From Phyllobates terribilis (lineage: Eukaryota), in assembly GCF_046119375.1 (NCBI RefSeq), contig NW_027362767.1, forward strand, positions 247,070,001-247,134,000: a DNA stretch of 64,000 nt, given 5' to 3'. Below, piece after piece: positions 9,605 through 52,744 of the stretch (positions are counted from its first letter, which is position 1; every line of letters begins with the position of its first letter). Below the pieces are notes generated by a model that saw only the letters and a list, made by a program, of their open reading frames with translations, was not told the origin of the DNA and made no database searches. The translations under genes and the position numbers were made by a program.

Positions 9605-17932
<8,328 letters not shown>

Positions 17933-32262: not shown

Positions 32263-33366
32263 AAAATTGCCACCGGCTGTATAGGTGTATAAGCATGGCC
32301 GGCACAGCGGCCTTCAGTGTCCCCTGTCTGCCATGACAATGCCCCACAATCCTATTATTATAGGCGTTTCTAAGGCTAAGTTCCTACAATGAGTTTTCGG
32401 ATGCTGCATATTTCTGCTCAGCAAAAAAAAAAAAAATGCACCGTCTTACTGTTCCAGTAAAGCGGATGGGATTTATAGAAATCTCATGTCCACCGTTTTG
32501 TTTTACCTGTGGTGCGTTTTTTTAAATCTTGCAGTAATTAATAGTTTTTTGGGAGTTTTTTTTTGCAGATTTTTCCCGTACACTTGAGATCGTGAAAAAA
32601 AAATGAAAAAAAAAAGACTAAAAAAAGCATGTTAATTTGCACATGACTGTATCAATAAAGTTTTGTCAAATACCAGGAAATATCAAAAACAGTTTATTTA
32701 AAACATGACATACCAAAAAGAGCCAAAAAAACGCAGCTTAAAAAAAATGTGATAAAAACGTATATAGAAAAAAAAATGCACAAAATACTCATCGTGGGAA
32801 CTTAGCTGTAAATGCCGCTGTCGCAATTTCCAGTGTAATCTAAGGGCAGGGGCGTACATAGGAATCATGGGGCCCCATAGCAGAAGTGCTAAATGGCCCC
32901 CCTCCCCAAATAAAATGTAAGTAATTGTTGGGGTCACAGAGGAGCAGATGTCACAACCTTCCAGCCTTTACATAGTAATTTTCCTCCTGTCCTAGATTCC
33001 TCTTTCATTGCCTCCATAAAGTATGATGCCAATGAAAGTGTCCCCTAAGCACAGTATGATACCCCCATGGTGAATTCCTCCACATGCACAGTATAATGAC
33101 GCCACTGTACCCCACCTCAACTCACAAGGCAAAGCATGGTGACCCCAACACAGTATGATCCCCCAACTGTGAGCCCTAGAGCTAGAGAGGATGGGAGGTA
33201 ATAAGGGAGGGTGTTATACATAATAAAAGAGGAAACTATATAACTAAGGACAGCGCTATACATAAGTGAGTACCCTCTATACTAAGGGACTGTGCTATAC
33301 ATAATAAGTGAGTATGCTATATACTAAGGGACTGTGCTATACATAATAAGTGAGTACACTATATAC

Positions 33367-34353
33367 TGTAACGGGTCTGGGAGGCGGAACCTCTGAGCTA
33401 CTATACAAGGGGGCGGTCCTTGTAAGGGAGCGGGTGGCAATCAGGGATGACGGGCAGGCAGTCACAGCAGGTGACCAGGACAGTCTCTGAGTGGACGGGC
33501 TGGAGGTCACGGAAAGTGACCGGGGCAGTCTCTGGACAAACGGGCAGGGAGTTACGGCAAGTGACCGGGGCAGTCTCTGGATGAACGGGCAGGGAGTTAC
33601 GGCAAGTGACCGGGGCAGTCTCTGGGTAAAGGGTAGGTACGACCTGTGATGGCAGAGCCTCCGGGTAGGCTAGCAGGCAGATGGTAGATGTGTGCTCCCA
33701 GGTGAGCAAGCGAGAGTCTCTGGAATGGTAGGTGGTCACAGCACGTGACGGCGAAGCCTCCAGGTAGGCTAGCAGGCAGGTAACAGGTGGGCGCTCCCAG
33801 GTGAGCGGGCAGGAGTCTCTGGAAAGGCAGATGGTCACAGCACGTGATGGCGGAGCCTCCAGGTAGGCTAGCAGGCAGGTAACAGGTGTGCGCTCCCAGG
33901 TGAGCGGGCAAGCTGGTCCATAGACAGACTGACAGGAGTTGGAAGGCAGACCGTCGGACCTCAGGCTAGCAGGCAGGTGACTGGATATCAGGCAGGACAA
34001 AGGCAGCAAGCTGGCAGGAATCTGGCAGGTAACTGGCAGGTAACTGGCAACGGGACCTGAGGGCTGAAGCACAGGTGAGACACAGGTGCAAACAACATTG
34101 CTCGGGCACCTCCATTTTGGAGGAGGTGCCCTTTATATGGGAGGTCCTCCGGCAATTGGCCGGGGACTCCTTAGGACGGCGCGCGCGGTCCCTTTAAGAG
34201 AGGGGGAGCGCGCGCGCCCTAAGCACACTGCCGGAGAAGGAGCGCGCGCCGGAAGCAGCGGGGAGAGCAGCGCTGGAGGACGCCGCGCCAGGAGCGGGGA
34301 GGTGAGAGGGACGGCGTCTCTGCCTAGAACGGGGCAGAGACGTCGATGCTACA
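33367..34353 (-). repeat. 3' LTR of the Gypsy element
   Basis: Direct repeat of 38553-39539; contains internal ~105-bp and ~39-bp tandem duplications. Confidence 0.95.
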
Positions 34354-37300
34354 GTACCCCCCCCTTTAGGCCCCCTCTTTTTTAGGCCAGAAAGAAATTT
34401 TTCAAGGAGAAGCGGGGCGTTGATGTTCTCCCTGGGTTCCCAAGTTCTCTCCTCAGGACCAAACCCCTTCCAATCTACCAGAAAAAAGGTTTTTCCTCTT
34501 ACCCTCTTGGAGGCCAGAATACTCTCTACCTCAAAGATGTCATCAGCGGAAACCGGAGCAGGAGGGGCACCTGGATTTTTGGAAAAAGAGTTAAAGACAA
34601 CGGGTTTGAGGAGAGATACGTGGAAGGAGTTGGGGATCCGTAGGGTGGCCGGGAGTTTTAATTTGTAGGCCACAGGGTTAATTTGCCTGAGGACTTCGAA
34701 GGGGCCGATGAATCGAGGACCCAACTTGTAGGAGGGTATTTTGAGCTGCACATGTTTGGATGAGAGCCAAACCTTGTCTCCCGGACGGAATTGGGGCGGA
34801 TCCAGACGTCTCTTATCAGCATATCTCTTCATCCGCTCAGAGGAGAGAAGAAGAGCGGACCTGGTGCTCTCCCAAATAGTAGAAAATTCGCTGACAAGAG
34901 ACTCCGCAGCAGGGTTGTCCACAGAAACGGAGACAGGAAGTGGAATCCGGGGATGTTGGCCACCAACTATAAAGAACGGGGATTTGGAAGAGGACTCGCT
35001 CTCATGGTTGTTGTAAGAGAACTCGGCCCACGGTAGAAGATCCACCCAGTCCGAGTGGTGAGCATCCACGAAGTGCCGGAGGTAGCTGGACAAGATCTGA
35101 TTGATCCGCTCCACTTGACCATTGGACTGAGGGTGGTAAGCGGAGGAGAAATCCAGGGTAATGTCCAGCAGCTTACAAGTGGCTCTCCAGAAACGAGAGG
35201 TGAACTGAACCCCACGATCCGACACGATGTGGAGGGGCAGACCATGGAGACGGAAGATGTGGCGGATAAAGTCTTTAGCCAACTCGGGTGCAGACGGAAG
35301 ACCAGGCAGGGGAATGAAGTGGGCCATCTTAGAAAAACGGTCAGCGACAACCCAAATGACGGTACAACCGGCAGAAACTGGAAGGTCGGTGATAAAGTCC
35401 ATAGCGATGTGTTGCCAAGGAGCAGCAGGTACGGGAAGGGGCAGGAGATGGCCGGCAGGTAGATGTCGGGGAACTTTGTTACGAGCACAGGATGAACAGG
35501 CCGCGACAAAGTCTACCACGTCCTTACGTAGGGTAGGCCACCAGTAATGCCGGGCAATAAGTTGAAAGGTCTTTTTTTGGCCAGCATGGCCAGCTAGTTT
35601 AGAAGAATGTCCCCAGCGAAGAACCCTCTCCCGATCTGGCACAGCTATGAACGTCTTACCGGGTGGAAGATGAGTTAGATCCAAGGGAGCCACATTCATC
35701 ACCTTGGAGGAGTCGATGATGTGCGTAGGTTCCTCCTCTTGATCGGAGGACAGGAAAGACTGAGACAAGGCATCAGCTTTGACGTTCTTGTCCGCCGGAC
35801 GGAAATGAAGAGTGAAGTCGAAGCGGGCAAAAAACAACGACCACCGGGCCTGGCGAGGATTGAGCCTCTGGGCATTTTGGAGATATGCCAGGTTTTTGTG
35901 ATCCGTGTAGATAATTACCGGGTAGAGAGCCCCTTCAAGCAGATAGCGCCACTCTCCTAGTGCCAATTTGATGGCTAGCAATTCCCGGTCTCCAATGGAG
36001 TAGTTGCGCTCCGACGAGGAGAAGATTTTGGAGAAGAAGCCGCACGTTACCATTCTCCCGGTAGAAGACTTCTGGGTGAGCACCGCTCTGGCTCCGGAGG
36101 AGGAAGCATCAACCTCCAGGTAGAATTGTTTATTACAGTCCGGACGGTGCAGGACGGGAGCAGAGGCGAAGGCTTTCTTTAGGGAAAGGAAGGCCTCCTC
36201 GGCTTCAGGCGACCATATCCTGGGGTTAGCCCCCTTACGGGTAAGTGCAGATATGGGAGCAGTCCGAGACGAGAAGTGTGGGATGAAAAGACGATAATAA
36301 TTAGCGAAGCCCAGGAATCGCTGTATCGCCTTCAAACCTTCAGGACGAGGCCATTTTAGAATGGAAGAGAGCTTCTCGGGATCCATTTGCAGACCTGTTT
36401 GGGAGATGACATAGCCCAAGAACGGAAGGGAGGTCTGATCGAAGAGGCACTTCTCGTATTTGGCGTAAAGGTGGTTCTGCCGAAGCCTAAGCAGGACCTG
36501 ACGAACATCCCTCCGGTGTGTGGGGAGATCCGGAGAGAAGACCAAGATATCGTCCAGGTATACCACTACGCAGGAGTACAGGAGGTCACGGAAGATGTCA
36601 TTGACTAGTTCCTGAAAGACCACGGGAGCATTACAGAGACCGAAGGGCATCACAAGGTACTCGTAGTGACCGTCCCGGGTATTGAATGCCGTCTTCCACT
36701 CGTCTCCTTGACGGATACGGACCAGATTATACGCTCCTCGAAGATCCAGCTTGGAGAAGATCCTGGCGCCCTTGAGCCGGTCAAACAATTCGGAGATGAG
36801 TGGCAGGGGATATTTGTTTTTTACCGTAATGAGATTGAGTCCTCTGTAGTCAATACAGGGACGTAGCGAGCCGTCTTTCTTTTTGACAAAGAAGAATCCG
36901 GCTCCAGCCGGGGAGGTAGATTTTCGGATAAATCCCCTAGCCAGATTCTCTTCAATGTACTCAGACATGGCTCGGGTCTCGGCTGCAGATAACGGGTAGA
37001 TACGCCCACGGGGAGGAGTGGTGCCAGGTACCAGGTCGATCGGGCAATCGTATGGCCTATGGGGCGGCAACGTCTCAGCTTCCTTCTTACCGAAGACGTC
37101 CGCATAGGGCCAGTAGGGAGCCGGGAGACCAGGTGAGTTAGCTGGAGTAGGCTGAGGGCGAAGTGGACGGACCGGAACCAGGCAGGTCCTATGGCAGTCA
37201 GGACCCCATCGGAGTACTTCACTCGACCGCCAGTTCAATACGGGTTCATGTGTCTGGAGCCAAGGTAGACCTAGCAACAAGGAGTGAGAAAGTCCGGACA

Positions 37301-37622
37301 GCACATGGAATGAGATCTCCTCAGAGTGCAGCATTCCCACCTGTAGGGTTATAGGTTCGGTGACGAGCAGGATTTTCTCCGAGAGAAGTCTTCCATCCAC
37401 GGAAGCAACTGACAATGGCTCCGCCAGGGACTTGGTGGGAATATGGTATCTCTCTACCAGAGACTGGGCGATGAGGTTTCCAGCAGCTCCAGAATCCAGA
37501 TGGGCGAGTTCGAAGAGACGGTTTTCTCCCCAAGCAATAGAGACCGGTAAGGTCAGAGACGGAGAGGACTTACTTTTGTCTAGGACGACCTCTCCGAGTG
37601 GTCCTAGACACTGGCGTTTCCC
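34194..37622 (-). CDS. pol: Pol (protease-RT-RNase H-integrase-chromodomain), entered by -1 frameshift
   Basis: Frame is open from the GGGAAAC site through LDSGA (protease), YLDDIL (RT), EVDAS (RNase H), HHCC and DDE integrase (MDFIT/SDRG/GQVER), GPF and a chromodomain (FLVDWKGFGPEERTWEP); continuous with the 1073-aa ORF at 34194-37415. Confidence 0.93.
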   Translation of the reverse strand, partial: GKRQCLGPLGEVVLDKSKSSPSLTLPVSIAWGENRLFELAHLDSGAAGNLIAQSLVERYHIPTKSLAEPLSVASVDGRLLSEKILLVTEPITLQVGMLHSEEISFHVLSGLSHSLLLGLPWLQTHEPVLNWRSSEVLRWGPDCHRTCLVPVRPLRPQPTPANSPGLPAPYWPYADVFGKKEAETLPPHRPYDCPIDLVPGTTPPRGRIYPLSAAETRAMSEYIEENLARGFIRKSTSPAGAGFFFVKKKDGSLRPCIDYRGLNLITVKNKYPLPLISELFDRLKGARIFSKLDLRGAYNLVRIRQGDEWKTAFNTRDGHYEYLVMPFGLCNAPVVFQELVNDIFRDLLYSCVVVYLDDILVFSPDLPTHRRDVRQVLLRLRQNHLYAKYEKCLFDQTSLPFLGYVISQTGLQMDPEKLSSILKWPRPEGLKAIQRFLGFANYYRLFIPHFSSRTAPISALTRKGANPRIWSPEAEEAFLSLKKAFASAPVLHRPDCNKQFYLEVDASSSGARAVLTQKSSTGRMVTCGFFSKIFSSSERNYSIGDRELLAIKLALGEWRYLLEGALYPVIIYTDHKNLAYLQNAQRLNPRQARWSLFFARFDFTLHFRPADKNVKADALSQSFLSSDQEEEPTHIIDSSKVMNVAPLDLTHLPPGKTFIAVPDRERVLRWGHSSKLAGHAGQKKTFQLIARHYWWPTLRKDVVDFVAACSSCARNKVPRHLPAGHLLPLPVPAAPWQHIAMDFITDLPVSAGCTVIWVVADRFSKMAHFIPLPGLPSAPELAKDFIRHIFRLHGLPLHIVSDRGVQFTSRFWRATCKLLDITLDFSSAYHPQSNGQVERINQILSSYLRHFVDAHHSDWVDLLPWAEFSYNNHESESSSKSPFFIVGGQHPRIPLPVSVSVDNPAAESLVSEFSTIWESTRSALLLSSERMKRYADKRRLDPPQFRPGDKVWLSSKHVQLKIPSYKLGPRFIGPFEVLRQINPVAYKLKLPATLRIPNSFHVSLLKPVVFNSFSKNPGAPPAPVSADDIFEVESILASKRVRGKTFFLVDWKGFGPEERTWEPRENINAPLLLEKFLSGLKKRGPKGGGTVASTSLPRSRQRRRPSHLPAPGAASSSAALPAASGARSFSGSVLRARALPLS

Positions 37623-38539
37623 GGCTTTTCCGGGCAGGAACGGATGAAGTGCTTCTTACTGCCACAATAGAAACAGCTTCCCTCGGCTCGGCGAGATTCT
37701 TGGCGAGAACCGACCATCTTGGTCTGGTCGACCTGCATAGGCTCAGGAGAGACGGAGGGAGTGACGGGTTGCTGAAAAGTAGGAGCTAAGCGTGGAAACC
37801 TCCTCTCACGGGTGACCTCTTTGGCACGCTCCTGGAACCGCAGGTCAATCCGGGTGGCAAGAGCTATCAGGTCATCGAGGGTGGTAGGAATGTCCCGACC
37901 GGCAAGTTCATCTTTAATACGGCCGGACAGACCCTCCCAGAAGACTGAAACCAGAGCGTCATTATCCCAGGCCAGCTCCGAGGCAAGGGTACGGAACCGT
38001 ATGGCATATTGGCCCACGGTGAGGCTTCCCTGACGGAGGCGTAGCAGTGACGATGCGGATGAGGTCTTCCGTCCGGGTTCGTCGAAGACTTTCCGGAAGG
38101 CCGTGAGAAAGGCAGGCAAGTTGGACACCAGGGGGTCTCCTCTCTCCCATAGAGGATTTAGCCAGGCCAGAGCCTCTCCGGTGAGATGGGACATGATGAA
38201 GGCAATTTTGGCCCGGTCGGAGTTAAACTGGTGGGACAGGAGTTCAAAGTGCAGGGTGCACTGATTTATGAAGCCCCGAGCCTGAGCGGAGTCGCCTCCG
38301 AAGCGAGGAGGTGCAGAAAGCCGGGGTCCGGGGTAGGATACCATAGTGTTGGTGGACAGCGGAGCTGTCGGATTGCGAATCATGGCGCTGGCGGAGGTTG
38401 TTGGCGGAGCAGTCAGAGTGTCCAGGCGAGAATTGACATTCCGCAGGTGACCCAGGATGGACTCCTGTTGGGACCTCTGGCGGGACAGTTCATGACACAG
38501 GTCCGAGAGCGAGGGAGCTTGGGTGCCACCGGGTTCCAT
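37604..38539 (-). CDS. gag: Gag (capsid plus CCHC zinc knuckle), 311 aa
   Basis: ATG at 38539 directly after the PBS; RGFINQC, LTGEALAW, LRQGSLTVGQYAIRF, CFYCGSKKHFIRSC; stop TAG at 37606-37604. Confidence 0.92.
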   Translation of the reverse strand: MEPGGTQAPSLSDLCHELSRQRSQQESILGHLRNVNSRLDTLTAPPTTSASAMIRNPTAPLSTNTMVSYPGPRLSAPPRFGGDSAQARGFINQCTLHFELLSHQFNSDRAKIAFIMSHLTGEALAWLNPLWERGDPLVSNLPAFLTAFRKVFDEPGRKTSSASSLLRLRQGSLTVGQYAIRFRTLASELAWDNDALVSVFWEGLSGRIKDELAGRDIPTTLDDLIALATRIDLRFQERAKEVTRERRFPRLAPTFQQPVTPSVSPEPMQVDQTKMVGSRQESRRAEGSCFYCGSKKHFIRSCPEKPGNASV

Positions 38540-38552
38540 GGCCCGAGCAAAC

Positions 38553-39539
38553 TGTAACGGGTCTGGGAGGCGGAACCTCTGAGCTACTATACAAGGGGGC
38601 GGTCCTTGTAAGGGAGCGGGTGACAATCAGGGATGACGGGCAGGCAGTCACAGCAGGTGACCAGGACAGTCTCTGAGTGGACGGGCTGGAGGTCACGGAA
38701 AGTGACCGGGGCAGTCTCTGGATAAACGGGCAGGGAGTTACGGCAAGTGACCGGGGCAGTCTCTGGATGAACGGGCAGGGAGTTACGGCAAGTGACCGGG
38801 GCAGTCTCTGGGTAAAGGGTAGGTACGACCTGTGATGGCAGAGCCTCCGGGTAGGCTAGCAGGCAGATGGTAGATGTGTGCTCCCAGGTGAGCAAGCGAG
38901 AGTCTCTGGAATGGTAGGTGGTCACAGCACGTGACGGCGAAGCCTCCAGGTAGGCTAGCAGGCAGGTAACAGGTGGGCGCTCCCAGGTGAGCGGGCAGGA
39001 GTCTCTGGAAAGGCAGATGGTCACAGCACGTGACGGCGGAGCCTCCAGGTAGGCTAGCAGGCAGGTAACAGGTGTGCGCTCCCAGGTGAGCGGGCAAGCT
39101 GGTACATAGACAGACTGACAGGAGTTGGAAGGCAGACCGTCGGACCTCAGGCTAGCAGGCAGGTGACTGGATATCAGGCAGGACAAAGGCAGCAAGCTGG
39201 CAGGAATCTGGCAGGTAACTGGCAGGTAACTGGCAACGGGACCTGAGGGCTGAAGCACAGGTGAGACACAGGTGCAAACAACATTGCTCGGGCACCTCCA
39301 TTTTGGAGGAGGTGCCCTTTATATGGGAGGTCCTCCGGCAATTGGCCGGGGACTCCTTAGGACGGCGCGCGCGGTCCCTTTAAGAGAGGGGGAGCGCGCG
39401 CGCCCTAAGCACACTGCCGGGGAAGGAGCGCGCGCCGGAAGCAGCGGGGAGAGCAGCGCTGGAGGACGCCGCGCCAGGAGCGGGGAGGTGAGAGGGACGG
39501 CGTCTCTGCCTAGAACGGGGCAGAGACGTCGATGCTACA
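38553..39539 (-). repeat. 5' LTR of the Gypsy element
   Basis: Direct repeat of 33367-34353; about 5 substitutions seen by eye and no net indel; TATAAA on the minus strand at about 39318-39323. Confidence 0.95.
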
Positions 39540-39649
39540 TATACTAAGGACGGCGCTATACATAATAAGTGAGTACACTATATACTAAGGGACTGTGCTA
39601 TACATAATAAGTGAACACATATACTAAGGGACTGTACTATACATAATAA

Positions 39650-39894
39650 GGCTACATTCCTGCATCTGTGTGCAGTGTCGGTGTGCTGCCCTGTTTTATA
39701 GATGCATTGAGCATGTCCTATTCTGATCCTCAAAATCGGATCAGAACAGGACATTCTCTGACCCTCACAGATTTCATTCTCAGATCCGTGATTTTCATGG
39801 ATGTGTGAATGGATCTATAAAACTCTATGAGTCCTTGGACCATCCCATAAAAAAATCTGGCAGCACACGGACATTTCACACAGTGAATGCAGCC
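39650..39894. mobile_element. PIF/Harbinger-like MITE
   Basis: TIRs GGCTACATTC / (rc) GGCTGCATTC with TAA on both flanks. Confidence 0.65.
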
Positions 39895-41070: not shown

Positions 41071-44000
41071 ATCACTGCGCAGAGATGCAGGGATTGCTCC
41101 TTGCCCGCCGCAAGCAGGGACAAGCTGCACCAGCGCCCCCCCGGTCAGCTGCACCGGCGGCGGTATATCCGCCCCTGGACTGCTATGGGGCCCCCCGGCT
41201 CACGGGCCCCATAGCAGTCACGTGGCCTGCCGCCATTGGCGGTACGCCACTGTCTAAGGGGTTAAGCTGCCGTGATTGGAGATAGCTCTTATCACAGCAG
41301 CTAGACTTAGGTGTGAGCTGTATACCACAGCTGGCTCCAGCGCTGCATATTCATATATATGTCATCGGAGGCCAGGGGCTGCATCTCGGAGATACGCCAA
41401 AGAATTGTTGGCAGTTTCCCCTGATTTCCCCTAAGTCGATGGCTTAAAAATGCAACATTTCCACAACGAATCAGTAGTGGATCTAGTGCAGCCCCTTTCA
41501 TGCGGACACGATTAGTTATTCCCTTGATTTCCAACCGTTGGTGTATTTCTAAAACAGCGGATGGGTAGCAGCGAATAAGCAAACATTTTCCCTGCAGAGG
41601 GCGCTATAGAAGAGATATATTACTGTATGGCATCTATGTGGCCCTAATAGGTCATAACGTCTGGTGTTGTCTTTATCAAAGTTTCTCAATATTCAGTTTA
41701 GGCAAATTTGTCTCCATGGGTAGTTGGGTGACTGACTACTTAAACTCCAGCCGCTGGAAGTGCTCCCTGCGTCTGACCTGCTGTTGGGTAGTCTCCTGCG
41801 TGCCCCATTTACATTGCCACTGCAGTATGAGACACAGCCACAAGAGCAAGTATAGCGCTGTGCCTGGTAATCTAGAGGGGTAACAAAAGTCAGGGATCAG
41901 TCACCATCCACCACACAGGCCTCATCTAAGCAGCATTTATCATTCTGCATGTGGCAATGGATTCTCATTTTTTTGTTTGTTTCAGAATGAAAATATGGCC
42001 ACCGGCTTCAAGGTGGAAATAGATCACACATCATACCAGGACTGTCAAAAATCGAAACCTGGTAAGATGACACAATTTTTGAGTGGTTCTGCATTTCCAA
42101 TTATTATTTTTTTAATGTGGTTCCTACTTTCAAATCTCATGGGCCCAACTATATAGAGGTATAGTGTTTGCCAGTCTATGGGTGCACCATGTGGCACCCA
42201 AACACAATTAGGTCCAGAAATATTTGGACAGTGACACAAGTTTTGTCATTTCAGCTATTTACCAAAACATGTTCCAGTAATATAATCACTATGGGCTTAA
42301 AGTGCAGACTCTCTACTTTAATTTGAGGGTATTCACATCCTAATTGGTGTAAGGGTTTAGAAATTACACCTCTTTAATATGTAGCTGTCTCTTTTTAAAT
42401 GTACCAAAGTAATTGGACAATTATCTCAAAAGCTCTTTAATGGGCTGCATGTGACTTTCCCTCATTAATCCATCATCAATTAAGCAGGTAAAAGATCTGG
42501 AGCTGATTACATGTGTGGCATTTGCATTTGGAAGCTGTTGCTGTGAACCCACAAAATGCTGTGAAAGGAGCTCTCACTGGAAGCGAAACAGTCCATCATT
42601 AGCCTCGAAAAAAAAATCCTTCAGAGAGATTTCGGAAATGTTAGGAGTGGCCAAATCAATGTTTGGGTACATTGTGAAAAAAGAGCGCACTGGTGAGCTT
42701 GGAAACTTAAAAAGTACTGGATACTCATAGAAAACAACAGTGGTGGATGACCGCAGAATTCTTTCCATGGTGAAGAAAAACCCCTTCATAACATCCACCC
42801 AAGTAAAGAACACTCTCCAGGAAGTCAGTGTTTCAGTATCTAAGTCTACTTTGTAGCAAAGCCAGGTATACAGGCTATGACTAGGTGGCTAGCTCTGCAT
42901 ATAACCAGGCTAGGTGTTCATCTATGTCAGTCAGCTGGGAGAAGCTGAGCACAGTGGATTGGGTTGGAGTGGGAGAGAGACAAGCCAGAATCTTTCTGAG
43001 AAGAGACTGCACCAAACTGCAAATATCACTGGTTTCTAGGGACAACAGCTGTTTTGTGAGACCGAACTGGGACTAGCTCACCCGCGTATGAGTAGCCAGG
43101 GTCTATTTTGTGTAGTTAGCACCTGGACAAGGCAAGAATCCAGTGCCTGTGTAAACACTACCTAATGCCTACCTGAGAGTGTGAATCCCTAAAATTAGTG
43201 GATGAACTGCGGGCGTGAAGTCCCAGTGAGCACAGGCGATTGCAATGTGAAGATTGAATGTCCAGGTAAATGCAGCTACAGCATTGCGAACAGTCTGAAA
43301 GCATGGAGGAGCTTTTTAAGCGATTACTCCAGGTGCAGCTGCAGTTGCAGCAGCAGCAGACCCAGCAGGAAACCAACAAACTCCTGATCCAGTAGTTACA
43401 ACAGCAGCAGCAGATTGCTCTTCTGGCAGAACCTGTCCAGGCCAGGGAGGCAGTACCATCCACCAGCCAAAGTGAAGGTATATGGGTGAAGCAAATGGCA
43501 CAGGAGACCTTGCAGAAAATGACTCTGGGGGATGACATACGACCTTGCCATACAGGATGCCAAGGAGTACGGCAAGCTGAAGGTGGAGATTATGGCATGT
43601 AACCCTGGCCGTCATTGTGCAACGGGTGAACCTCTGGTGCTACCACAGGGACAAGCCTCCTTTGTCCCAGAGGTTCGACCTGTTACAGCTGGTGCAAAAA
43701 TGGCTGCAGCCTGAGACCTGCTCTCCTGCCCAGATGGTGGAAAGAGTCGTGGTGAACCGGTTTATCCACTCTACCTCAAGCCATGCAAAGCTGGGTTGCC
43801 CAAGGAAGGAAATCCCCAGAATGCAGAAGACCTTGTGAGCCTCATGGAAAGATACTTGGCTGTAAAGAACACCCTGAGCAATCAAGGGAGCCTGAGGTCA
43901 TATTTCTGGTATATGCAAAATAAGGACCCCAAGACCACAACTTACAGGTGTCCAAAGACTCAGGAGGGGTCAGAGCCCCTGAGGTTCAATGGGTACATCT

Positions 44001-44542
44001 CGTACCAATGTCTGTTGGAGGTGTTGTGTCCTGGGTCATATATCATGGGCAGAGGTTCTTGCTCTATACCTCTATGGCTGCAGCCAGAAACCTGCTCTCC
44101 AGCACAAATCGTGGAAAGAGTGGTAGTGGACAGATTTGTCCACTCATTACCTAAATCCATGCACAACTGAGTTGCCCAGGGAGATCCCAGAACTCAGATG
44201 ATTTAGTGAGCTTGGTAGAAAGATACTTGGCTGTGGAGAACTTTCTGAGCAGTGAAGGGAGCCTGAGGTCACCTTTCAGGAAAACCCAAAAGAAGGGGAC
44301 CAAGATCACCTCTGAGGTACACCCAAGGTCCCAGGAGGTGTCAGAATCAGGTTCAAGGGGTACATCTCGTAACATTGTCTGTTGGAGGTGTCGTGTCCCG
44401 GGTCATATATCATGGGCAGAGGTTCTTGCTCCATACCTTACTGGGGAACTGCAGAAAGCGTACTACAACCTTGCCCTGCATGATGCCATGGAGTATGGCA
44501 AGCTGAAGGCAGAGATTATGGCACATTTGGGCGTAACCCAGT

Positions 44543-45642
44543 TGTGATGAAACAGCTTCTTAATCAGCCAGATGTCTAGATTTATTAAGGCAAGAGAAAT
44601 GCATTATTGTGTTTGTGTTGACTTTAGAACTTGCGTGTGTTTCTTTGGTGGGTCAAGAAGGACAGACCAGTATTTGTATAGCCCTGAATGTTGTCTTCTC
44701 TTGGTTCTGAAACAATGATGATTGTTACTATGATAATTGCATATTATACTAAATCCAGCTAGAAGTTTATTTACAAGAGCCCCCTGCTATAACAACTATG
44801 TAAATTGATTAAAAGCTCAAAAATGAGACCTGAGCCCTGTGGAATAATACCCTCTCTAACCCTTGCCCTGTGGATACTTGAAAGAAAAAATGTGAACTAT
44901 TTAAGGAACATATGCCTCTGCAGCAGGCAGATTTGGAACAAAGAACTGAAAGAGACTTTATAAGGAGAATCAAAGATCAGACTCTCTTCAGACCATCAGC
45001 TTGGTAGCATGGCTTTATCCAAAGAGACACAGATTTGGATTCTACATGATTCCAACCTAAGGGTATATGGCTCTGACTGGAAAGCTTTGGATCTGCTCCA
45101 CTGACCATCAGAGAGCCCATGGATACATTTGGGGAGACCAGGTTGGGACAATGAAGTCACCTGGCCCCATGGATATGTTGTTTGGGGTTGCCAGGTGGGA
45201 CCCTCCGGTCTCCTGGAACCCATGGAGACATTCGGAGAAGCCAGATTGGGACCAGCCAGTCATCTGGTCCCATGGAGACTCTCGGAGAGGACAGGGTGGG
45301 ACCCTCGGGTCTCCTGGCCTTGTACCTCGATGGACTGTCAGCTTCTTAAGCTTGCCACTACCTTTTCTCTGTGGGGCCCGCCAAAAACGGGGGGGGGGGG
45401 GGGGGGGGGGCACTTTTTGAGGTAGTTAGCCCTGGGAGTCCCAAAGCCACAGCTGTTCTATCCCAGGCGGGCCAGCAGAAGGGTGAGAATGTGTAATGTT
45501 GTACCATCTTGGGTATTAGCTTGGACTGTTCTATGTGTTTATTGTCCGCCTGGTGGTTCAATAAAGTATTGCCACACTGTTTTATCCTCACCCTGTGTTG
45601 TCTGAGTAGTATTATGCCCACGGAAGACCCTGGGTCTTCACA
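44543..45642 (+). mobile_element. Solo LTR (1100 bp) inserted in the SCAN-like gag
   Basis: TGTGA...TCACA termini, 5-bp TSD CCAGT (44538-44542, 45643-45647), AATAAA at 45560-45565; host gag is continuous across it. Confidence 0.85.
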
Positions 45643-47013
45643 CCAGTGCAACGGGTGCACTTCTGGCGCTACCAAAGGGACAAGCCTCCCGTGTCCCAGA
45701 TGTTTGACCTGTTACACCTGGTCAAAAATGGCTGCAGCTGGAGACCTGCTCTCCAGCACAAATGGTGGAAAGAGTAGTAGTGGACAGATTTATCCACTCA
45801 CTACCTATATCTGTACAAAACTGAGTTGCCCAGGGAGATCCCAGAACGCAGATGATTTAGTGAGCTTGGTAGAAAGATACTTGGCTGTGGAGAACTTTCT
45901 GAGCAGTGAAGGGAGACTGAGGTCACCTTTCAGGAAAACCCAAAAGAAGGAGCCCAAGATCACGTGTGAGGGGCGCCCAAGGTCCCAGGAGGTGTCAGAA
46001 CCAGGTTCAAGTTCTACATCCCGTAACATTGTCTATTGGAGGTGTCATTCCCCTATTCATATATCGCCCAATTGTCCTTCGATCTTGGAGCCTATGGACT
46101 GCAGCATGGGCCAGCACTGCTCCTATTTCGCCTACACTTCCTGCAGTGCTGTTCCTCATCCTGGCGAGGGGCCTCAGGAATGCCCGGTGACTGTAAACGG
46201 TGCACAAGTGACGGGACTTCTGGACTCGGATTGTGACGGGACTTCTGGACTCAGAGTTTGGTGACCCTGGTAAGGGCCACACTTCCGCATGTGCTACTCC
46301 CTGGGGAGGGGGGGGGGGTAAGGTGTATCCATAGAGACGCCAATAAGTATCCCATGGCTCAGGTGTACATACGCACAGACTGTGGATCTATATCCCACCA
46401 ATTGGCCAAGGACTTGTTTCATGCTATTGTTTTCTGATGTGACTTTCCTTTGCTCTGGGACTTATGGGCTAAAGCTGTAGCACCTAGCAGTCCAGTATGT
46501 TGGCAGGTGTCGGCTAAGGTAACAAGGTCACACGATGTAAATGGCGAATTTCCTTTCACAGCATTGGCTACTGCGGAGGATGATGAAGCCTCCCCTGAAG
46601 CCAATATCCCTGATCTGGAGGAATCCCAGGACAACTTTGAGACTGCCCATCTCAGGGACTTAACGGTAGAAGGTACTCTGGAAAATGTAAATGAGTTCCC
46701 CAGGAGACAGGAGCCAATAATTGGTTTCCGCAATTGTTGTGTTGTGGGACCAAAGTGAAGGGACAGGTAAAAGAGCGTCCCCTCAAGGCCCAAGAGGAAA
46801 AATCAAGGGGGTGTAATTGGTCGGCTCTAGTGAGACAATTTACGCCTGAGGATCAGGTACTTGTGTTAGTGCCCACAAGAGCGAGAAGATTCTTTATAAC
46901 ATGGCAGGGACCTTATGATTTGGTACAAAAGGTGCGAGAGGTTAACTATAAAGTATACTGACCAGGAAAAAGAAGGCCTTCCCCATATATTATGGCAACC
47001 TACTAAAACACTA

Positions 47014-48920: not shown

Positions 48921-49121
48921 TTAGGCTGCTTGAACGGAGCTTCACAGGACAGATGGACAATGACCCAAAACATCCTGTGAAAGCAAAGAAGTGGGATATT
49001 CTGCAATGGCCGAGTCATCGCGAGATCTCAGCCCATCGAGCCGCATTTCACAGGATGAAGACAAAACATAAGACAGAAAGAGCCACAGACAAGAAACCAC
49101 TGAAGTCACTGCAGTAAAGGC

Positions 49122-49980
49122 AGAGAGAGAGGAGAGAGGAGGCAGAGAGAGAGAGAGGATTCAAAAAGACCTAAATAAACTGGAGCAGTGGGCAGCAACC
49201 AACAGAATGGTTTTTAACAGGGAAAAATGCAAAGAACTACATCTGGGCAATAAAAATGAAAAAAGCATATACAGAATGGGAGGAATAGAGCTAAGCAACA
49301 GTACATGTGAAAAAGACTTAGGTATACTAATAGATCATAGACTGAACATGAGTCAACAGTGTGAAGCAGCAGCAAAAAAGGCAAATACAATTCTGGGATG
49401 TATTAACAGAAGCATACAGTCTAGATCACGTGAAGTCATTATCGGTCTTTACTCCTCTTTGGTCAGACCTCATCTGGAATACTGTGTACAGTTTTGGGCA
49501 CCACATTTTAAAAAAGACATAGACAAACTGGAGCAAGTTCAGAGAAGAGCGACCAGAATGGTGACTGGTCTGCAAACCATGTCCTATGAGGAACGGTTGC
49601 AGGATTTGGGAATGTTTAGCTTGCAAAAAAGAAGACTGAGAGGAGACTTAATAGCTGTCTACAAATATGTCAAGGGCTGTCACATTGTAGAAGGATCATC
49701 TTTATTCTCATTTGCACAAGGAAAGACTAGAAGCAATGGGATGAAACTAAATGGGAGGAGACACAGATTAGATATTAGAAAAAACTTTTTGACAGTTAGG
49801 GTGATTAATGAGTGGAACAGGCTGCCACGAGAGGTGGTGAGTTCCCCTTCAATGGACGTCTTCAAACAGAGGCTGGACAGACATCTGTCTGAGATGATCT
49901 AGTGAATCCTGCTTTGAGCAGGGGGTTGGACCAGATGACCCAGGAGGTCCCTTCCAACTCTACCATTCTATGATTCTATG
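49122..49980 (+). mobile_element. 5'-truncated CR1 LINE (ORF2 C-terminus, 231-aa ORF 49207-49902, plus 3' UTR)
   Basis: EKDLG, LVRPHLEYCVQFW, LEQVQRRATR, RRLRGDLI motifs; terminal (ATTCTATG)2; TSD AAAGGC (49116-49121, 49981-49986). Confidence 0.92.
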
Positions 49981-51227: not shown

Positions 51228-52744
51228 CAGTACAGACCAAAAGTTTGGACACACCTTCACATTAAAAGATTTTTCTGTATTTTCATGACTATGAAAATTC
51301 TACATTCACACTGAAGGCATCAAAACTATGAATTAACACATGTGGAATTATATACTTAACAAAAAAGTGTGAAACAACTGAAAATATGTCTTATATTCTA
51401 GGTTCTTCAAAGTAGCCTCCTTGGGATTTCTTGCCTTATAAATGGGGTTGGGACCATCAGTTGTGTTGTGCAGAAGTCAGGTGGATACACAGCTGATAGT
51501 CCTACTGAATAGACTGTTAGAATTTGTATTATGGCAAGAAAAAAGCAGCTAAGTAAAGAAAAACGAGTGGCCATCATTACTTTAAGAAATGAAGGTCAGT
51601 CAGTGCGAAAAATTGGGAAAACTTTGAAAGTGTCCCCAAGTGCAGTTGCAAAAACCATCAAGTGCTACAAAGAAACTGGCTCACATGAGGACCGCCCCAG
51701 GAAAGGAAGACCAAGAGTCACCTCTGCTTCTGAGGATAAGTTTATCCGAGTCACCAGCCTCAGAAATCGCAGGTTAACAGCAGCTCAGATTAGAGACCAG
51801 GTCAATGCCACACAGAGTTCTAGCAGCAGACACATCTCTACAACAACTGTTAAGAGGAGACTTTGTGCAGCAGGCCTTCATGGTAAAATAGCTGCTAGGA
51901 AACCACTGCTAGGGACAGGCAACAAACAGAAGAGACTTGTTTGGGCTAAAGAACACAAGGAATGAACATTAGACCAGTGGAAATCTGTGCTTTGGTCTGA
52001 TGAGTCCAAATTTGAGATCTTTGGTTCCAACCACCTTGTCTTTGTGCAACGCAGAAAAGGTGAACGGATGGACTCTACATGCCTGGTTCCCACCGTGAAG
52101 CATGGAGGAGGAGGTGTGATGGTGTGGGGGTGCTTTGCTGGTGTCACTGTTGGGGATTTATTCAAAATTGAAGGCATAATGAACCAGCATGGCTACCACA
52201 GCATCTTGCAGCGGCATGCTATTCCATCCGGTTTGCGTTTAGTTGGACTATCATTTATTTTTCAACAGGACAATGACCCCAAACACACCTCCAGGCTGTG
52301 TAAGGGCTATTTGACCAAGAAGGAGAGTGATGGGGTGCTACGCCAGATGACCTGGCCTCCACAGTCACCAGACCTGAACCCAATCGAGATGGTTTGGGGT
52401 GAGCTGGACCGCAGAGTGAAGGCAAAAGGGCCAACAAGTGCTAAGCATCTCTGGGAACTCCTTCAAGATTGTTGGAAGACCATTTCCGGTGACTACCTCT
52501 TGAAGCTCATCAAGAGAATGCCAAGAGTGTGCAAAGCAGTCATCAAACCAAAAGGTGGCTACTTTGAAGAACCTAGAATATAAGAGATATTTTCAGTTGT
52601 TTCACACTTTTTTGTTAAGTATATAATTCCACATGTGTTAATTCATAGTTTTGATGCCTTCAGTGTGAATGTACAATTTTCATAGTCATGAAAATACAGA
52701 AAAATCTTTAAATGAGAAGGTGTGTCCAAACTTTTGGTCTGTAC

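Follow-up and report, generated by a model that had tools for sequence, protein, structure and literature searches.

The window analysed here is a 64,000-nt stretch of the Phyllobates terribilis assembly GCF_046119375.1 (contig NW_027362767.1, positions 247,070,001-247,134,000), and coordinates refer to this whole stretch unless another contig is named. On its minus strand, the window carries an LTR retrotransposon bounded by two LTRs of 987 bp (39539-38553 and 34353-33367) that differ by 5 mismatches and have the ends TGT...ACA. The 5' LTR (38553-39539) is composed of a U3 region of ~246 nt followed by 741 nt from the predicted transcription start (+1) to the LTR end. A GTATA target site duplication lies on the 5' side (39540-39544) and on the 3' side (33362-33366) of the element, and the 3' LTR (33367-34353) is preceded, 3 nt upstream, by a polypurine tract (34357-34367). 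The insertion site itself is a 39-42 nt tandem repeat that is now found on both flanks (33202-33367 and 39537-39650).

Two long frames lie between the LTRs, both on the minus strand. The gag frame (37604-38539) is open for 311 aa, matches Retrotrans_gag, Ty3_capsid and DUF4939, and has a CCHC motif at its end. The pol frame (34194-37655), open for 1153 aa from stop to stop in the -1 frame, encodes protease, reverse transcriptase (RT), RNase H, integrase, SH3_Tf2-1 and, at the integrase C-terminus, a chromodomain (PF00385, E 1.4e-12, residues 1041-1088). The two are joined by a predicted -1 frameshift signal (37570-37622), which consists of GGGAAAC (37622-37616) and a downstream stem-loop. Its LTRs, target site duplication, polypurine tract, domain order (gag, then protease, RT, RNase H and integrase) and chromodomain make the element a young chromodomain Ty3/Gypsy retrotransposon of the chromovirus type. 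The pol stop lies inside the 3' LTR, ~53 codons beyond the polypurine tract and into U3 (34194-34353). An initial sequence-only reading had judged the element intact enough for experiments. Both frames are indeed open, but against 16 sibling loci this copy departs from at least 90% of the alignments at 1 Gag and 10 Pol positions. The private Pol changes at 345, 523 and 632 fall in what we take to be RT and RNase H motifs, so the enzymes of this copy may not work despite the open frames.

The primer binding site (PBS) TTGCTCGGGC (38550-38541, minus strand) is separated from the LTR-terminal ACA (38553) by 2 nt (GT) and is followed by a C and then the gag ATG. It is not of the tRNA type and is the exact complement of GCCCGAGCAA within the 5' LTR (39293-39284, minus strand), the predicted self-primer and first 10 nt of the predicted transcript, of which a second copy lies in the 3' LTR (34107-34098). 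A TATAAA box is located at 39318-39323 on the same strand. It is separated from the 10-mer by 24 nt, which puts the predicted +1 30 nt from the first T of the box. The sequence-only reading had described a PBS lacking the TGG start and exactly complementary to an LTR 10-mer at TATA spacing, and the coordinates of both arms are confirmed. In dinucleotide-preserving shuffles of the LTR, an exact complement to one of the 10-mers that begin 0-5 nt past the LTR turns up in 33 of 5000. For the window 10-mer itself, the expected number of matches is 9e-4 anywhere in the LTR and ~5e-6 within a 5-nt window. As a control, the Athila-like loci with a TGG PBS described below, many of which are near-identical, were searched for a 10-nt self-complement, which was present in 0 of 27.

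The element belongs to a family with 1759 first-look candidates in its own genome (10.6 Gb), and the 40 that were scored are ~100% identical over 861 nt. The 30 closest copies all share one PBS, 27 of the 28 upstream arms located in them are the same, and loop length alone varies, with TATA-to-ATG distances from 672 to 930 nt. Because the PBS does not vary among these copies, co-variation was sought in sister families, which were collected with a Pfam model and protein queries (six protein or model queries in all yielding frog loci). Ninety 10-kb stretches were taken, and the mapping of LTR pairs covered the first 60 of them. The resulting 254 oriented loci were reduced to 212 distinct ones, of which 187 have both flank anchors, 19 the LTR-end anchor only and 6 neither. 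The anchors use flanking letters only, but they were designed after the initial complementarity search that found the families. Among the 187 anchored loci the two arms pair at 10/10 positions in 133, 9/10 in 35, 8/10 in 9, 7/10 in 3 and at most 4/10 in 7. Of the 10 loci below 8/10, five have mis-set anchors and two carry an extra T that shifts the register. Removal of the five mis-set loci leaves the analysis set of 182.

Co-variation of the two 10-mers across family copies, to which the sequence-only reading had looked, is present in the sister families. The 133 perfect loci represent 11 sequence types (one of them accounting for 89), and together with the 35 at 9/10 they make up the 168 of 182 loci that pair at 9/10 or better. 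At least two pair types occur at 9 of the 10 positions, and the column count needs at least 14 two-sided changes, while arms swapped between different types match at only 5.5/10 positions on average (range 2-9). The perfect types follow the clades of a quick capsid tree of 96 rows, with SH-aLRT support of 97 for A1, 99 for B+Bp, 100 for G and 99 for D, the last two read with a long-branch warning for D versus G. In two loci, L285 and L215, both LTRs carry a private change, and the PBS has the matching one. The perfect type of L152, a CpG transition pair, could reflect decay. Of 60 one-sided mismatches, 40 are G>A or C>T, and they are often confined to one of the two LTRs, as post-insertion decay would produce.

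These types also bear on the identity of the primer. A host tRNA or tRNA fragment could prime the element and leave the LTR match incidental, and the tRNA set compared is small (45 tRNA-like sequences covering Lys(TTT) and TTA-anticodon copies), so that internal fragments of other tRNAs lie outside it. Within that set, the best match to the window 10-mer is 8/10 with G-U pairs counted as half. All 11 perfect PBS types lack a TGG start, and each tracks its own LTR arm, which would require as many host RNAs; a tRNA primer is thus considered extremely improbable.

Several features of the collection were noted in passing. A G follows the terminal ACA in 182/182 loci (as part of the anchor, it is not a free count), and the second gap base is family-dependent. 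In L191 and L238 an additional T separates LTR and PBS, possibly from non-templated addition or slippage at the primer junction. Family E (L160-L165 and L173) is a young sister family, with LTRs 99.5-100% identical in four loci, and has gag and pol in one frame of ~1499 aa, in contrast to the -1 slip of family A. Most family G copies (L207-L218) have only ~2.2-2.6 kb between their LTRs and are without most of pol, with the primer/PBS pair retained; the member L215 is full length. Window-family copies also occur at a spacing of ~5.15-5.23 kb, the length of the element minus one LTR (C9:384840211-384861918, C2:866923042-866929203 and C685:706212-711979), and are therefore likely to be head-to-tail tandems sharing one LTR.

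The upstream arm has several properties expected of an RNA 5' end. When pairing is averaged by position over 10 (sub)families, the Watson-Crick fraction is 0.03-0.08 from -4 to -1 (0.05 at -1) and rises to 0.90-0.99 from +1 to +10. Past +10, it is 0.11 at +11 (0.70 with G-U pairs), 0.19 at +12, 0.88 at +13 and 0.58 at +14. In each of the 10 (sub)families, AT content is maximal at -30 to -24 (0.83-0.98). All 187 anchored loci have a pyrimidine (T or C) at -1, and every one of the 11 perfect types starts with G at +1. A Pol II transcript would, on these grounds, begin at 39293. Together with the 11 co-varying types and the TATA spacing, the -1 pyrimidine and the onset of pairing at +1 and not before lend support to the self-priming proposal of the sequence-only reading.

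Mosaic LTRs provide a further line of evidence. In L184, L251 and L274/L198 the type switches between ~-24 and +18, which is where a first strand transfer from +11 would place the break. Breaks in other mosaic LTRs lie deeper in the leader, the four-gamete and linkage scans for one at +11 gave noisy results, and the triplet breakpoint score favours central breakpoints. Owing to the deeper breaks and this bias of the search towards the middle, the breakpoints are only suggestive. Among the matches listed in contigs of 8 sequencing runs, which as contigs do not display RNA ends, there was neither a minus-strand GT-AG joint, as a spliced leader would leave, nor a poly(A) loose end.

In the window copy, the loop between the two arms is 733 nt long and contains tandem arrays (38631-39235, minus strand) with units of 11 nt (x5.4), 99 nt (x2.6) and 45 nt (x4), which are the likely source of loop-length variation. 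Across the 182 loci, the loop ranges from 138 to 1110 nt with a median of 707. The sequence-only reading had called this loop unusually long and laden with repeats; the repeats are there, but the length is ordinary, with 43% of the 182 loci having a longer one. That reading had also proposed folding the leader. The primer:PBS helix is part of the minimum-energy fold of the window leader, with a pairing probability of 0.92-0.96 for three choices of 3' end but 0.56 for a fourth. Over 12 leaders the probability is at least 0.75 in six and 0.0 in three, where only nested folds are considered and crossing helices cannot be represented.

The freedom of loop length and the three leaders lacking a predicted equilibrium fold-back are also what would be seen if the element's 5' 10-mer primed in trans, from a co-packaged second RNA or a short LTR transcript, in place of folding back across the loop. 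Donors would be plentiful, given the 1759 candidates. The private three-site compensation in L285 and L215 needs primer and PBS to come from the same lineage, however, the fold-back is present in the minimum-energy structure of the window leader, and Tf1, which is taken up below, is described in excerpts of its literature as an intramolecular three-duplex fold. Priming in trans is accordingly regarded as quite unlikely, and fold-back of the RNA onto its own PBS remains the preferred arrangement.

A second helix is predicted beside the first. It would join part of U5, 22-32 nt upstream of the LTR end, to the sequence just past the PBS; in the window copy its strands are GGTTCCG (38571-38577) and TGGAACC (38532-38538, overlapping the gag ATG at 38539-38537), both on the minus strand. 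Among the 133 family A loci, 102 have GGTTCCR:TGGAACC as their longest helix. In B, Bp, E, D and F, the second helix is formed by other letters, with a segment's own partner best or tied in 7/7 rows, and the gag ATG lies inside it in A, D, E and F. The helix significantly outperforms shuffled sequences in B, Bp and E, at z -3 to -4.2; families A (z -0.2 to -0.7), C and G show no such excess. In retroviruses, a U5 segment pairs with the sequence just past the PBS, including the gag start. The frog helix differs from this U5:AUG pairing in surrounding a predicted self-primer site and not a tRNA site, and its function is a prediction.

Because the gag ATG begins 1 nt past the PBS and is part of the second helix, translation should be sensitive to the fold. 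This would suit a genuine 5'-PBS helix with a role in packaging, dimerisation or the control of translation, with something else acting as primer. The 3' arm nevertheless lies exactly at the PBS position, at ACA + 2 nt in 176 of the 182 loci, another primer site is absent, and the geometry matches published descriptions of Tf1. A non-priming role alone is therefore held to be highly improbable. In a self-priming element, the second helix would fit one flanking duplex of the published Tf1 'pretzel'. Of the parts of that structure, the central duplex is strong, the U5:gag-start helix co-varies but reaches significance only in B, Bp and E, and the extension at +11/+13/+14 is short.

A different structure occurs at the start site of the window copy, where a 10-bp perfect hairpin (39290-39317, minus strand) extends from the TATA box to +4 and covers the first 4 nt of the primer (-23.4 kcal/mol, z -6.4, 0/200 shuffles). 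A universal hairpin over +1 was considered and rejected, as the hairpin is strong in family A and weak or absent in B-G. The hairpin has a matched pair at +4 in the 63 youngest A1 loci and in 5 A3 loci, and 45 others have a mismatch there. It can form only with U3 attached, as in the 3' copy. With 31 nt of U3 added, primer:PBS pairing is 0.01 in the window leader (0.56 without U3) and 0.03 in L248 (0.97 without U3); E and G show no such drop. Neither AATAAA nor ATTAAA is found between +1 and the LTR end in any of 133 family A loci, while 14 of 16 family G loci have AATAAA at -30 or -31.

These observations allow a tentative extension, considered unlikely, in which the leader is a fate switch with a guard. 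Since the priming fold buries the cap-proximal 10 nt and the gag AUG, an RNA would be either translated or packaged and primed. The family A hairpin over +1 to +4 would hide the 3' primer copy, so that only a true 5' end could bind the PBS. As family A is without AATAAA, the TATA hexamer may double as the poly(A) signal across the hairpin, which would leave a very short R.

The reading favoured overall is of a young Tf1/sushi-type chromodomain Gypsy element with a PBS complementary to part of its LTR, in which the 5'-terminal 10-11 nt of the element's RNA very likely serve as the primer of reverse transcription. The process would begin with a Pol II transcript starting at 39293, whose 5' end would fold back onto the PBS across a loop of any length. 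The U5:gag-start helix and a short extension past the +12 mismatch would then complete a Tf1-like pretzel. The element's RNase H would cut after nt 10 or 11 to expose a 3' OH, and minus-strand DNA would run back to ~+11 before jumping to the 3' R. Plus-strand synthesis would copy the primer into a new PBS and so spread compensatory changes. About half of Tf1 cDNA retains a full PBS copy at its 3' end, according to excerpts of PMC11042837. A primer may therefore be able to template the next PBS, which would explain the private three-site compensation.

Self-priming has been shown for Tf1 and implicated in elements from fungi to vertebrates, in the portions consulted of PMC6317226, PMC3601003, PMC5341516, PMC7175516, PMC2864245, PMC4600332, PMC4340606, PMC11042837, PMC7472051 and bioRxiv 10.1101/2022.12.06.519325. 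In Tf1, an 11-base duplex forms between the RNA 5' end and the PBS, and RNase H cleaves directly after it, between bases 11 and 12 (excerpts of PMC7175516). The intramolecular three-duplex fold and U3/R breakpoints in fission-yeast elements are described in parts of PMC7175516, PMC4600332 and bioRxiv 10.1101/2022.12.06.519325, and head-to-tail tandems are described for integrase-independent Tf1 insertion in part of PMC11042837. The frog element resembles Tf1/Tf2 of Schizosaccharomyces pombe, Tj1 and Tosmo1-3 in being a chromodomain Ty3/Gypsy element with a PBS just past the LTR that is complementary to the RNA 5' end (a predicted one in the frog). Its predicted flanking duplexes, suggestive recombination breakpoints near the U3/R junction and likely tandem copies would be further points of resemblance. 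The frog elements have 10 Watson-Crick pairs, with G-U at +11 in most families and a mismatch there in the window copy, in place of the 11 nt of Tf1. The 733-nt loop exceeds the whole fission-yeast LTR (392-395 bp, Tosmo). Unlike the fission-yeast elements, the frog element has a Gag with a CCHC motif, reaches Pol via a -1 slip and has a gag ATG that abuts the PBS. It is known from sequence alone, whereas Tf1 self-priming is experimental.

The vertebrate Tf1/sushi V-clade (sushi-ichi, Amn-ichi/ni/san) shares with the frog element its host group, domain order, -1 frameshift, LTR ends and predicted self-priming. A -1 frameshift at gag-pol is predominant outside fission yeasts. The Sushi motif has LTR ends TGTA../CGTTACA, and the Sushi LTR model has an AATAAA near the 3' end (excerpts of PMC3601003); family A differs in having no AATAAA near the LTR 3' end, and family G has one. 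For RT-RNase H, the closest named relatives are in poison frogs, then Xenopus tropicalis (69-70%) and fish proteins labelled Tf2-like (~60%). The nearest proteins are frog and fish chromodomain Gypsy elements, some labelled Tf2-like, and the element's place in the fungi/vertebrate chromovirus clade, judged by pairwise and domain matches (SH3_Tf2-1, DUF4939), is provisional. In a PDB search, no Tf1-type RT was among the best 60 matches, and the top match was Ty3.

As the sequence-only reading had held, the mechanism is a known one, proven for Tf1 and predicted for vertebrate Tf1/sushi elements, the latter in Butler et al. (2001) as cited in the available excerpts. Amphibian examples and the flanking helices may already be documented there or in the primary literature on Tf1. 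In the excerpts consulted, the demonstration of self-priming comes from fission yeast, and for vertebrate elements the mechanism is deduced; among the papers listed in searches, judged on titles and abstract openings, no experimental test in a vertebrate element was found. The present analysis confirms a known mechanism and adds none. With it, a frog family joins the group with good comparative support; its genome supplies a strong natural series of compensatory mutations, allows the start site to be predicted to the nucleotide and indicates that loop length is unconstrained. If it replicates as proposed, this very abundant, recently active family would need no host tRNA and would likely escape control by tRNA fragments.

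Other sequences were encountered in the assembly and the window. The top PF03732 matches in the frog assembly are plant-like elements, which we take to be Athila, with TGGCGCCG primer sites in 27 of 30 loci (L061-L090). As these loci are plant-like and all on small unplaced contigs, they are likely plant contamination of the assembly. Within the window, a coiled-coil-like host-gene exon (16034-16546, minus strand) and a CR1-like LINE tail (49072-49902, plus strand) were labelled by eye, both without a Pfam match. SCAN-domain remnants, possibly from a decayed SCAN-bearing Gypsy gag, lie in a 371-nt tandem duplication (43538-46264, plus strand). The window also holds two Tc1-type transposase remnants (DDE_3, HTH_Tnp_Tc3_2), at 13944-14663 on the minus strand and 51513-52583 on the plus strand.
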